DNA of 64,000 bases from Myxococcota bacterium (GTDB taxonomy: Bacteria; Myxococcota_A; UBA9160; UBA4427). Shown in pieces: positions 56,163 to 58,488 of the stretch (position 1 is its first letter; each line of letters opens with the position of its first letter). The notes under the pieces were generated by a model. The model saw nothing but the letters and a program-made list of their open reading frames with translations. It made no database searches and was not told the DNA's origin. A program made the translations under genes and the position numbers. The stretch covers positions 461,587-525,586 of the forward strand of contig JBNLVL010000004.1 of assembly GCA_050618075.1 (NCBI GenBank), given 5' to 3'.

Positions 56163-56771
56163 TCACGGCTCGTTCCGGCCGATCGCGCCGACGCCCGCCC
56201 CGGCGATCGCGCTCGCCGGGGCAGGCAGGTCGAACTTCGCCTTCAGGGTGAAGGTGTCCTTGCTGTCGCCGCGCATGTCCCACAAGAACCCGTCCTCCTT
56301 GCTCCGGAACTCCACCTGCAGCTTCACCTTGAGCTTCGTCCCGCTCTTGTCGATCGAGCCCTGGATCTTCAACGCCTTGATCTTCACCGGCTTGCCGTCG
56401 GGAATGGAGAGGATGCAGGACGAGACCCCGTCGTCGATCTCCTGGTTGAGGACGCTCTGGGACGGCCCGTCCAGCTCGACCTTCAGCGTGCGGTCCTTCT
56501 TGCCCTTCTGCTTCCAGGTGCCGCCCACGAAGTCGGCACCGACGTAGCCCGTCCAGGAGCCGTTCTCGAAGAACTGCATGCCGACCGCGCGCGCGGTCGG
56601 GCCGCACTTCTGTGTCGAGCTGCCGTCCTTGAACTTCATCTTCCAGGAGCCGGTGGCGTCGACCGAGACGCCGGCCAGGTCGACCTTGGCGGCCCGGGTG
56701 GCGCCGGCCCAGAGAAGCATCGGGACGAGAACCATCGGAAGCAGGAGACGTACGAGTCCGGTCGGCTTCAC
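56163..56771 (-). CDS. secreted Lys-rich hypothetical protein, paralogous to the central region of the upstream lectin-domain protein
   Basis: GTG 56771 lies 6 nt after AAGGAG. Signal peptide ...LLWAGATRA-AKV. GSWKMKFKDGS and GTWKQKGKKDRTLKVELD mirror GSWTQKMKTFWDG and GTFKRKGADGETIKLKID in the 56842..58488 product. Confidence 0.55.
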   Translation of the reverse strand: MKPTGLVRLLLPMVLVPMLLWAGATRAAKVDLAGVSVDATGSWKMKFKDGSSTQKCGPTARAVGMQFFENGSWTGYVGADFVGGTWKQKGKKDRTLKVELDGPSQSVLNQEIDDGVSSCILSIPDGKPVKIKALKIQGSIDKSGTKLKVKLQVEFRSKEDGFLWDMRGDSKDTFTLKAKFDLPAPASAIAGAGVGAIGRNEP

Positions 56772-56841
56772 GGCTTGCTCCTTGTTCGAGCGTGAGCGGC
56801 CTTGCCGGCCCGGCACCCCCGCTCTGCAGAAGAAACGGCGA

Positions 56842-58488
56842 TCAGAGGATCGCCTTCACGATGCGGGTGATGATCTTGCTCACGATCTTGCGGACGAGCT
56901 TGCGGACCTGGGCCTTGATCTCGTCCTCGACGATCTTCCAGGCGGCGCTCAGGAGCCTCTTCTCGGCGGCCTCCTTCTGGGCCGACAGCGAGGTCTCGAG
57001 GTTCGCGAAGCCGTTGATCACGAAGAGCAGGTTGTCCCGGGCGAAGGGTGTGAGCTCGACCGACACGACGACCCGGCCGCCGGCGTCGCACTCCGTTCCC
57101 TTGTCCTCGATCTGGTCGAGCAGGAAGGCGATCGAGTCGGAGTCCTCGAAGTCCTGGAGGATGGAGACGAAGTCGTCGGTCAGGATCAGGTAGGCGTTGT
57201 CGGAGCCGATGATCTCGGTCATCTCGATCCAGCCCTGGAAGAGCGCCCCTTCGGACGGATAGAGGTGGCGACCCTGGTTGGGGAGGCAGGCCGTGGGCAG
57301 CGAGCCCGGCGGCTCGACGATCGAGGTCTCCAGGCGGATCTTGTGCGTGGTCTTCCCGCTGCCCGTGAACTTCCCGAGCTTCTTCGCCTTGCGCTTCCAC
57401 TCGATCGAGCCCCGGATCTTCCCGCGCAGGACGAAGGTCTCGTCCTCGACGATCGATCCCTTGAGGACGGCCTTTTTGACGTCGACCTTCGCGGAGAGGA
57501 ACTTCTCGCCACTGTCCTCCTCGAAGTCGCCGACCCGGGCGCAGAGGCTCGCCGAGCGCGCCAGGATCTTCTCGAGCTCCTTCTCGGAGGCGCGATCGAT
57601 CTTCAGCTTGATCGTCTCACCGTCGGCGCCCTTGCGCTTGAAGGTGCCGGTGACGAGGCTGCCGAAGCCGTCGCGGTACTCGAAGCGGGCGGACTCTCCG
57701 GACAGGAAGCGGATGCTGCCCTCGTCGTCGCTGCCGAGCTGCCACGAACACTCGTAGGGAATCTCGTCGAGGTCGATGCCCTGCTTGCGGAGCCGCTCGA
57801 GGACCTGGTCGATCTTGTCCTGTGGGCCGTCCCAGAAGGTCTTCATCTTCTGGGTCCAGGAGCCCCCGAGCGGAAGGGTCCGGTCGAGGGGAAGCTCGCC
57901 GGTCGGCTGCGCTGGAACCGGCGCGCCGAAGACCTGCACCTCGGCGAAGGCGGCGTAGCGCTGGGTCGGGTTCGCCGGATCGAAGTCGAAGTCGATGCGG
58001 ACGAACCGCCCGACGACGCCGCCGTCCGGGAGCGCGGGTCGGTAGTCCACCTCGGCGGGCGGATTGAAGACCTTGCCGAGCGAGGTGACGTTGCCGGCGT
58101 CGTCCGCGATGCGGACCGTGAACAGATACAGCCGCTCGGCGCAGCAGTCGGTGCGGTTCCAGAGGACGATCTCGTCGATCTGGTGATCGGCGCCGAGGTC
58201 GAGCTCCCAGAACGGCGACGGGTCCGCTTCGCCCCCTGCCGTGTGGCTCACCGACAGGGCGCCGAAGTTGCCGTTGGTGTTGCCGTCGATGGCGCGGTCG
58301 GCGCTGGCCGGGACCCCTCCGTGGATCCAATCGGACGACTGGGTGGCGACGCCACCCGGCGCCACGTTGGTCTGGGCGTCGGCCGGGGCGGCCCAGGAGA
58401 CGGCCGCCAACGTCAGTGCCGCGAGAGCTGCCCGCAGAGGGTGCCGCGAGGACGGCAGCTCGCTTCCGGTCGCCCTTCGGTTCGTCAT
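56842..58488 (-). CDS. secreted F-type lectin (fucolectin/FTP) domain protein with uncharacterised C-terminal region ending in a cationic amphipathic helix
   Basis: ATG 58488. Signal peptide ...AAVSWAAPADA-QT. NVAPGGVATQSS...AIDGNTNGN...SHTAGGEADPSPFWELDLG...LWNRTDCCAERL matches the F-type lectin H...RxDCCxER signature. Last 30 aa: IVEDEIKAQVRKLVRKIVSKIITRIVKAIL. Confidence 0.75.
   Translation of the reverse strand: MTNRRATGSELPSSRHPLRAALAALTLAAVSWAAPADAQTNVAPGGVATQSSDWIHGGVPASADRAIDGNTNGNFGALSVSHTAGGEADPSPFWELDLGADHQIDEIVLWNRTDCCAERLYLFTVRIADDAGNVTSLGKVFNPPAEVDYRPALPDGGVVGRFVRIDFDFDPANPTQRYAAFAEVQVFGAPVPAQPTGELPLDRTLPLGGSWTQKMKTFWDGPQDKIDQVLERLRKQGIDLDEIPYECSWQLGSDDEGSIRFLSGESARFEYRDGFGSLVTGTFKRKGADGETIKLKIDRASEKELEKILARSASLCARVGDFEEDSGEKFLSAKVDVKKAVLKGSIVEDETFVLRGKIRGSIEWKRKAKKLGKFTGSGKTTHKIRLETSIVEPPGSLPTACLPNQGRHLYPSEGALFQGWIEMTEIIGSDNAYLILTDDFVSILQDFEDSDSIAFLLDQIEDKGTECDAGGRVVVSVELTPFARDNLLFVINGFANLETSLSAQKEAAEKRLLSAAWKIVEDEIKAQVRKLVRKIVSKIITRIVKAIL

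Follow-up and report, generated by a model that had tools for sequence, protein, structure and literature searches.

The locus and its products

The 64,000-nucleotide stretch analysed here (the window; Myxococcota bacterium, assembly GCA_050618075.1, contig JBNLVL010000004.1, positions 461,587 to 525,586) contains two adjacent genes for secreted proteins on its minus strand. The larger gene encodes an F-type-lectin protein of 548 residues, and the smaller one, which starts 70 bases downstream, encodes a partner of 202 residues. The window has ~71% GC, and all positions below are counted from its first letter. An earlier interpretation of this DNA was made from the letters alone and is called here the sequence-only reading; every feature and sequence string that it described was found in place. 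The parts of the two genes are as follows.

56842-58488, minus: gene for the 548-residue secreted F-type-lectin protein, from open reading frame (ORF) and translation; stop codon 56842-56844
58375-58488, minus: signal peptide, residues 1-38, Sec type, cleavage site between ADA and Q
57919-58374, minus: F-type lectin domain, residues 39-190, from Pfam, PDB phmmer and Foldseek; His82, Arg112, Asp114, Arg119, Cys115-Cys116, AIDGN
57313-57891, minus: Lys-rich central beta-domain, residues ~200-392, paralogue of the small partner; two conserved Cys (247, 316)
56845-57312, minus: C-terminal module, residues 393-548, from profile search; Cys401...Cys467, QGxHxYP, GSD, DDFxSILxDF, then helices
56845-56916, minus: terminal 24-residue tail, six polar-polar-hydrophobic-hydrophobic tetrads (KAQV RKLV RKIV SKII TRIV KAIL)
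56163-56771, minus: gene for the 202-residue secreted small partner, a single copy of the central-domain fold; AAGGAG upstream of GTG

The ORF of the large protein (56842-58587, minus) holds an ATG at 58488 that yields 548 residues, and its orthologues start at the same position. The product is identical to an NCBI entry named 'MAG: discoidin domain-containing protein [Myxococcota bacterium]', which carries no other annotation. Full-length orthologues share 41-58% identity with it. For the small partner, the GTG at 56771, preceded by AAGGAG, gives 202 residues, and the gene call of an independent assembly has the same length. The 190-residue start used by NCBI is probably too short.

Both proteins begin with an export signal, read from the sequence and not called by a prediction program. 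In the large protein, a basic n-region and an Ala/Leu core precede the ADA-Q site, which bears out the Sec export proposed for it. The small partner has a basic, hydrophobic, AxA-type signal with a site between TRA and AK. Neither signal contains a lipobox Cys. The mature large protein has six conserved Cys, which fits an extracytoplasmic location. Tat, lipoprotein and MYXO-CTERM/PEP-CTERM-type signals were sought by eye in the large protein and rejected, as it has no lipobox Cys and its tail is too charged to span a membrane. Domain comparisons divide the large protein into four parts: after the signal peptide come the F-type lectin domain, a Lys-rich domain that is also found as a free protein, and a C-terminal module that is portable.

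The F-type lectin domain

Pfam F5_F8_type_C_2 matches residues 65-165 of the large protein (E=2.8e-15; 57 bits against a cut-off of 27.8 bits). Among PDB sequences, phmmer matched FBP32 (4e-19), SpX-1 (1.6e-10), eel agglutinin AAA (4.6e-10) and the lectin domain of lectinolysin (4e-9), and Foldseek matched the domain to 2j22, 2j1t, 1k12 and 3lek. The fucose-binding motif of F-type lectins consists of a His followed downstream by RxDx4(R/K), and their calcium motif is h2DGx (PMC5712786). His82 (within SHT) and R112-T-D114-CCAE-R119 (within NRTDCCAERL) of the window protein align with the fucose-binding residues of FBP32 and SpX-1, with a His-to-Arg spacing 3 residues longer than in FBP32. The calcium motif AIDGN is present at residues 65-69. 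These sequence and fold matches, together with the aligned His/Arg/Arg triad, confirm the sequence-only reading that this is a true F-type lectin domain with its binding residues.

Within the family, the Arg, Asp and Arg of the motif and the Cys-Cys pair are invariant, as are the Ile, Asp and Gly of the calcium motif (given as I67, D68 and G69). The fucose-binding His is replaced in three of the seven aligned members, by Ser in P0002 and P0003 and by Ala in the L004 orthologue. Judged from these residues, fucose binding is likely for the window protein and is not assured for the whole family.

Among its database relatives, the lectin domain is typically joined to effector or enzyme domains such as metallopeptidases, fucosidases or lyases. 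The H/R/R triad, Cys-Cys pair and calcium motif are common to the CBM47-type modules, such as SpX-1 of S. pneumoniae, which sits on GH98, and those on Streptomyces and Streptosporangium fucosidases. Unlike these, the window protein has no recognisable catalytic domain; its lectin is joined to two undescribed, non-enzymatic-looking domains.

The Lys-rich central domain and its free copy

The sequence-only reading had recognised no motif in the central region, and Pfam, NCBIfam and PDB sequence searches likewise place it in no known family. No Pfam family matches the central domain or the small partner. A retropepsin-like candidate (RloA/PF05618-type) in residues 282-345 was rejected, with 18 bits against a cut-off of 280 bits and E=0.015 for PDB 9g58. 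The retropepsin D-[TS]-G is missing: Asp298 is followed by R-A, D-A, E-G or K-A, and the equivalent Asp is absent from the partner P0042.

By itself, a BLASTP comparison of the large and small proteins is weak (E=8e-4 over 39 residues). When the two small alignments were compared by hhalign, the central domain and the small partner matched with 96.6% probability and E=5e-10. A relaxed hhalign run covers the entire small protein, pairs both sets of motifs quoted in the sequence-only reading and aligns both conserved cysteines of each protein. A local hidden Markov model (HMM) of the small protein recovers every large orthologue, and stand-alone relatives of the small protein match the large-protein profile in a search of 1.84 billion proteins. 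By sequence, these results indicate that the small partner is a true paralogue, a free copy of the large protein's central domain, as had been suspected. A local hmmsearch of all six-frame ORFs found no extra paralogue in the 64-kb window.

Both AlphaFold2 (AF2) structure predictions, which rested on shallow alignments of 5-6 sequences, are consistent with this relationship. The central domain was modelled with a predicted local distance difference test score (pLDDT) of ~80-90 as long amphipathic strands plus two helices. Residues 204-389 of the large protein and residues 36-181 of the small one have the same order of elements: a hairpin, three short strands, a long Cys-bearing helix and three long strands. 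The large protein's domain has one additional inserted helix. In Foldseek, the small-partner model gave weak matches to eight-stranded barrels of the lipocalin/NHBA/TbpB/LolA type (E ~1e-3, probability 0.97-1.0, template modelling (TM) score 0.3-0.49). Lipocalin, TbpB and NHBA-type barrels are its best matches and have amphipathic up-and-down strands in common with it, whereas the small partner has a long Cys-bearing helix between strands 5 and 6 and no sequence similarity to them.

Lys makes up 11.4% of both the small protein and the central domain, against 0.8-3% in most neighbours (5.7% in the small cytochrome c). Both genes had been described as Lys-rich for this genome; the description holds, and the enrichment is specific to this domain. 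The strands alternate Lys/Thr with Leu/Val/Ile/Phe, which would make one face of the sheet cationic, and the isoelectric points (pI) are 8.7 for the central domain and 9.6 for the partner. GC at third codon positions (GC3) is native, at 0.94. Horizontal transfer, considered on account of a GC dip (0.66 vs 0.71), was rejected since GC3 is like that of the neighbours and the dip follows from the Lys codons.

In the window, in L001, in L004-6 and on the contig carrying P0002/P0044, the lectin gene is followed by the small partner, whose orthologues are P0042-P0045. Two of its motifs, CILSIPDGxPV (residues ~119-129) and WDMRGD (residues 164-169), are invariant among the small proteins; the matching domain of the large protein lacks them. 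WDMRGD includes an RGD tripeptide and lies in a low-confidence loop. In L001 (7633-8541; P0043), the small partner is extended by ~110 residues at its C-terminus, and the extension has no recognisable family. In the window, a short GC hairpin (56837-56854, minus) that leads into a T-rich run overlaps the stop codon of the lectin gene, and an imperfect inverted repeat (56139-56190, minus) brackets that of the small partner. These elements may act as attenuators or terminators that set the ratio of the two products. Terminator-like sites are no more numerous than in shuffles. The stop codon of the lectin gene and the start codon of the partner gene overlap in L004, a geometry of translational coupling.

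The C-terminal module and its tail

The C-terminal module is defined at the family level by a conserved Cys pair, QG..YP, QG[ST]D and Y.LI..D.F, followed by helices. It has no Pfam or PDB relative, and AF2 modelled it poorly (pLDDT <60). Two distant proteins match the window protein in their last ~150 residues only. One, P0049, has a signal peptide and an RCC1 propeller; the other, P0053, has a lipoprotein signal and an unfamiliar domain. Sequence comparison indicates that the last ~155 residues are a portable module that stands behind different N-terminal domains (F-type lectin, RCC1 propeller and lipoprotein domain).

The module ends in the tetrad tail, and the terminal KAQVRKLVRKIVSKIITRIVKAIL is the true C-terminus of the large protein. 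The model shows one long helix (residues 481-547) continuous with the rest of the module, at low confidence (tail pLDDT 47-57). The hydrophobic moment of the tail peaks at 90 degrees (0.78), a period of 4.0 residues. At 100 degrees, the moment over all 24 residues is 0.35, which 22% of shuffles match, and the best 18-mer reaches 0.63. On this ground the period-4 description was preferred to that of a classical amphipathic helix with 3.6 residues per turn. The period is 4.0 in seven of the nine proteins that carry the module, the distant P0053 included, and 3.8-4.2 in P0004 and the distant P0049. In every case the tail stops exactly at the C-terminus with hydrophobic residues.

Charge does not follow this pattern. 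Over the last 24 residues, the window protein and the L004 orthologue have a net charge of +8, and the other orthologues have +6, +3, 0, 0 and -4; a range from +8 to -4 means that a cationic antimicrobial-type mechanism would not be the conserved function, and across these sequences the cationic character appears lineage-specific. The sequence-only reading had described a cationic amphipathic C-terminal helix. An amphipathic helix is predicted at low confidence, whereas the charge is not conserved and the 100-degree moment over 24 residues is not above shuffles. Since the hydrophobic pattern is conserved and the charge is not, packing against lipid or protein fits the tail better than cationic membrane lysis does. 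The tail suits conserved hydrophobic packing or lipid contact better than a classical cationic antimicrobial helix.

E. coli PBP5 and PBP6 are Sec-exported proteins with C-terminal amphipathic-helix membrane anchors. The window protein likewise has a Sec signal and a short amphipathic hydrophobic segment exactly at its C-terminus. The two differ in period: the PBP5 tail peaks at 100 degrees (period 3.6), and the window tail at 90 degrees (period 4.0).

Distribution of the family

The family is extremely rare. In a word-indexed search of 5.8 billion clusters, the large protein had five full-length relatives and one fragment, and the small protein had four relatives beyond its own entry. A contig look-up added one further orthologue pair. 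An exhaustive HMMER profile search (residues 195-548; 1.84 billion representatives) found 11 proteins at E<=1e-3. Profiles of the large and small proteins found no related locus in 185,579 species genomes, and none was found in the JGI metagenome collection; the alignment of the C-terminal module with its distant members was too divergent for genome scanning. The full-length members all come from one narrow clade. Three secreted proteins of 173-182 residues (P0048, P0050 and P0052) consist of the Lys-rich domain alone and lie on short contigs or beside unrelated neighbours (a histidine kinase and, by eye, an S8-like peptidase).

Promoter, regulator and conserved neighbourhood

The lectin gene is preceded by two palindromes of the type bound by CRP and by genes for a CRP-type regulator and a nucleotide cyclase. 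These features, and the gene that follows the small partner, are listed below.

58610-58625, no strand: distal CRP-type operator TGTGAAGCGGTTCACA, a perfect TGTGA-N6-TCACA, conserved in L001, L002 and L004
58569-58584, no strand: proximal CRP-type operator TGTGAACCGGTCCACA; its centre lies 41 bp from that of the distal operator
58542-58547, minus: possible -10 element CAGAAT in a conserved CCAGnnT block; position deduced from the intergenic alignment
58664-59329, minus: CRP/FNR-family regulator directly upstream of the lectin gene; cNMP-binding domain and HTH_Crp_2 from Pfam and NCBIfam
59520-61787, plus: receptor-cyclase (7TMR-DISM plus class III nucleotide cyclase), from Pfam and PDB, transcribed away from the regulator; in-frame TGA at 60240-60242
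55243-56040, minus: YfcE/SapH-like metallophosphoesterase downstream of the small partner, from Pfam, NCBIfam and PDB; present or absent together with the partner

The pattern TGTGR-N6-YCACA occurs twice in the 64 kb, against 0.06 matches expected, and both occurrences lie in the 175-bp region upstream of the lectin gene. Allowing one mismatch revealed no further site in the 64 kb. Both boxes and their 41-bp spacing recur in L001, L002 and L003, and L004-6 have one exact box and a second that is off by a single base. The boxes form conserved islands in an otherwise divergent intergenic alignment and are followed by the conserved CCAGnnT block. If this block is the -10 element, the operators would lie near -41.5 and -82.5, by analogy with CRP-activated promoters that have tandem sites. 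Class II/III promoters of E. coli are activated by CRP-cAMP and can have such tandem sites. The window likewise has two near-perfect palindromes that are spaced by 41 bp and lie on one face of the DNA, with a weak -10-like element downstream and a CRP-family gene next to them. In contrast to E. coli CRP, the regulator of the window is dedicated and locally encoded rather than global, and the substrate-selecting residues of the cyclase are unusual (Gln/Gly).

The regulator matches Pfam cNMP_binding (1.7e-22; cNMP, cyclic nucleoside monophosphate) and HTH_Crp_2, and in NCBIfam it comes closest to CRP, with a score under the equivalog cut-off. It retains the phosphate-binding cassette FGELG...RSAS, as judged by eye, and adjoins the lectin gene in every related locus. 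The sensor matches Guanylate_cyc (6.8e-17) and 7TMR-DISM_7TM in Pfam and CyaB, bPAC and Cya2 in PDB. Its TGA at 60240-60242 aligns with a Trp (TGG) of the orthologues, is immediately followed by GTG and divides the sequence into a periplasmic part of 240 residues and a 7TM-cyclase part of 514 residues. An independent Logan assembly (L012) shows the same split, which could mean that the gene is a pseudogene, that it is truly divided in two, or that the assemblies have a consensus error in common. Within the cyclase domain (60978-61640), the substrate-selecting positions hold Gln (NQYLGD) and Gly (GGVIGD); the corresponding residues are Lys and Thr/Asp in adenylate cyclases, and Glu and Gly in the guanylate cyclase Cya2. 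With Gln and Gly at these positions, the cyclic nucleotide produced is uncertain.

In every locus with enough sequence, the divergent 7TMR-DISM/class III cyclase, the CRP-family regulator, the lectin, the small partner and the YfcE-like metallophosphoesterase form a conserved block. The metallophosphoesterase is possibly a cNMP phosphodiesterase. Two loci, L002 (5068-5299) and L003, keep the lectin gene and two CRP boxes and lack both the small partner and the metallophosphoesterase. Their joint absence suggests that the two genes come and go as a pair, and that a lineage can keep the lectin gene without them.

The cassette also stands beside the distant gene that joins an RCC1 propeller to the C-terminal module (P0049, locus L007). 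This gene is flanked by a regulator and a sensor that are 50% and 38% identical to those of the window, in a rearranged order, and this points to a functional rather than a merely inherited linkage. The L007 sensor (3086-5062) has a degenerate cyclase (Guanylate_cyc E=0.0034; HD replaces the GD metal motif), and the promoter by the RCC1 gene (5900-5935) has just a two-mismatch CRP-like box, AGTGACTGGCCGCACA. For the window, a regulatory link of the promoter to the CRP-type regulator and the cyclase is strongly indicated by the two unique footprinted sites, their 41-bp spacing and the presence of the cassette by the RCC1 gene.

Between the regulator and cyclase genes, at 59433-59596, lie tandem repeats of 9 bp (GGTTTCGCA, 5.7 copies), 18 bp (2 copies) and 12 bp (GGGAAGAGAAGT, 3.3 copies). 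This stretch is relatively AT-rich for a genome of 71% GC and may be an array with a regulatory role or a promoter element that varies. Across the window, no match to an Rfam family attained the gathering score. Farther away, at 49380-53763, genes for an MtrB/PioB-type outer-membrane porin, multihaem cytochromes and the small cytochrome c form an extracellular electron-transfer-like module. Synteny of the MtrB/PioB-type cluster with the lectin block extends to L002 and L004 and not to the distant L007.

A regulated lectin complex as the proposed function

We tentatively read the two genes, with a probability of roughly 0.4, as an operon for a regulated lectin complex that would be bound to a surface or matrix and induced by a cyclic nucleotide. 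The operon is not a demonstrated toxin. An external cue, probably a carbohydrate, would act on the 7TMR-DISM receptor and raise the level of cyclic nucleotide. The CRP-like activator would then bind its tandem sites, plausibly at -41.5 and -82.5, and switch the operon on. Once exported, the lectin would bind glycans that contain terminal L-fucose or related sugars, and the cationic beta-domain and its free paralogue would add contact with polyanionic surfaces. The role of the C-terminal module with its tail would be to attach the protein to a lipid surface or a hydrophobic one, to gather it into oligomers that give the lectin avidity, or to do both. A module for anchoring, assembly or a common output would be expected to travel with different binding domains, as this one does. 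The signal may be terminated by the neighbouring phosphoesterase.

Such a complex would work as an adhesin or matrix lectin under regulatory control. Among bacteria, fucose lectins of the LecB kind and adhesins like the type 3 fimbriae are examples of matrix or adhesion factors whose production is regulated. P. aeruginosa LecB, M. xanthus MBHA and Dictyostelium discoidin I are glycan-binding proteins that act at a surface or in a matrix under a dedicated regulatory switch, and discoidin has an F-type-like discoidin fold. The likeness to these three would be one of function, by analogy: beyond the discoidin-fold superfamily there is no sequence kinship, and the domains and the regulator differ.

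Several observations weigh against this proposal. The models of the C-terminal module and tail are of low confidence (pLDDT <60), and a period of 4.0 residues is unusual for an alpha-helix lying on a surface. P0053 is already lipid-anchored at its N-terminus, so its tail cannot serve purely as an anchor. With the His lost in three of the seven aligned members, fucose may not be the common ligand. One lineage retains the lectin with the partner lost, and the sensor-cyclase has an in-frame stop in this genome.

The sequence-only reading had favoured a glycan-targeted membrane-active effector. The lectin, or RCC1 in the relatives, would dock on a target, the C-terminal module would oligomerise and the tetrad helices would insert, with the paralogue as second component or as chaperone or immunity factor. 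Fusions of a lectin with a pore-former do exist, as in lectinolysin (PMC5712786), whose lectin domain is among the PDB matches. The Streptococcus mitis protein (Sm-hPAF) joins an F-type lectin domain to a cholesterol-dependent cytolysin (CDC); both proteins are secreted with an N-terminal F-type lectin domain, and the match is direct in sequence and fold. In contrast to lectinolysin, the other 360 residues of the window protein have no CDC/MACPF likeness, and the host is Gram-negative, the architecture different and the partner gene paralogous. No pore-forming domain (CDC/MACPF, aerolysin/ETX-MTX2, leukocidin, ClyA or colicin) was found in the large protein, and Pfam, NCBIfam, PADLOC and PDB sequence searches, with single sequences and profiles, returned no toxin or pore-former similarity. 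Against PDB and BFVD, Foldseek gave only lectin matches for the large model and only the weak lipocalin/TbpB/NHBA-like barrels for the small one.

Other properties suit an effector. The C-terminal module stays constant behind interchangeable targeting domains, and the lectin domain of database relatives usually decorates enzyme or effector domains. In the window itself, the best 18-mer moment (0.63) and the charge of +8 are high, and the two-residue stripe, 50% hydrophobic, could line a helical bundle. However, the remaining 360 residues resemble no toxin in family or fold, the tail charge runs from +8 to -4, the 24-residue amphipathicity at 100 degrees is matched by 22% of shuffles, the lectin His is variable, and the conserved neighbourhood has no secretion-system or immunity gene. 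The central region still belongs to no known family and the tail is predicted to be helical (pLDDT 47-57), so the toxin idea is weakened rather than excluded, and we consider it unlikely.

A bolder form of the idea would make the C-terminal module with its tetrad tail a new membrane-inserting or bridging device that uncultured Myxococcota place behind interchangeable targeting domains (F-type lectin, RCC1 propeller or lipoprotein domain), with a separate 7TMR-DISM cyclase and CRP-type switch for each. The products would be inducible, target-directed effectors with the Lys-rich paralogue as second component. This is speculative, and we hold it to be improbable.

The operon might instead supply a glycan-capture accessory of the signalling system, a role that we judge quite unlikely. 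The lectin and partner would capture a polysaccharide from the environment, for instance one that contains fucose and may be anionic, and pass it, or a sign of its presence, to the 7TMR-DISM receptor or to uptake in an inducible loop of sensing or foraging. Bacterial F-type lectin domains are mostly carbohydrate-binding modules on glycan-active enzymes (PMC5712786). The lectin is tightly linked to the 7TMR-DISM receptor even where gene order is rearranged, the central domain and partner present a predicted cationic sheet face (pI 8.7 and 9.6), and the partner fold weakly resembles ligand-binding barrels of the lipocalin/TbpB/NHBA type. These fold matches are nevertheless weak (TM ~0.3), the conserved block has no glycoside hydrolase, sulfatase, transporter or TonB-dependent receptor, and the RCC1 relative lacks a lectin entirely.

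Finally, the tail could be just a helix that structures or oligomerises a soluble protein from within and has no membrane role, and the cNMP cassette could lie nearby through shared ancestry alone. Although the single long AF2 helix (residues 481-547) continuous with the module, a period of 4.0 that suits multi-sided packing over a one-sided lipid face, and the confinement of full-length members to one narrow clade would agree with this, it is a poor prospect given the operators conserved at and unique to the lectin promoter, the cassette beside the distant RCC1 gene and a tail that always terminates exactly at the C-terminus in hydrophobic residues.

Implications

A hypothetical protein known only as 'discoidin' gains a concrete anatomy, an F-type lectin plus two domain families absent from Pfam. 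One of the two new domains also occurs as free small secreted proteins, and the other is portable and ends in an unusual period-4 hydrophobic tail. The locus also presents a compact, self-contained cyclic-nucleotide circuit, with a sensor-cyclase, a CRP-like regulator, two operators and a single output operon. To our knowledge, the cNMP regulons of Myxococcota are poorly mapped. The atypical substrate-selecting residues of the cyclase raise the question of which nucleotide the circuit uses. If the C-terminal module is membrane-active or anchors proteins to the surface, it would be a new building block for the secreted proteins of predatory and social bacteria.

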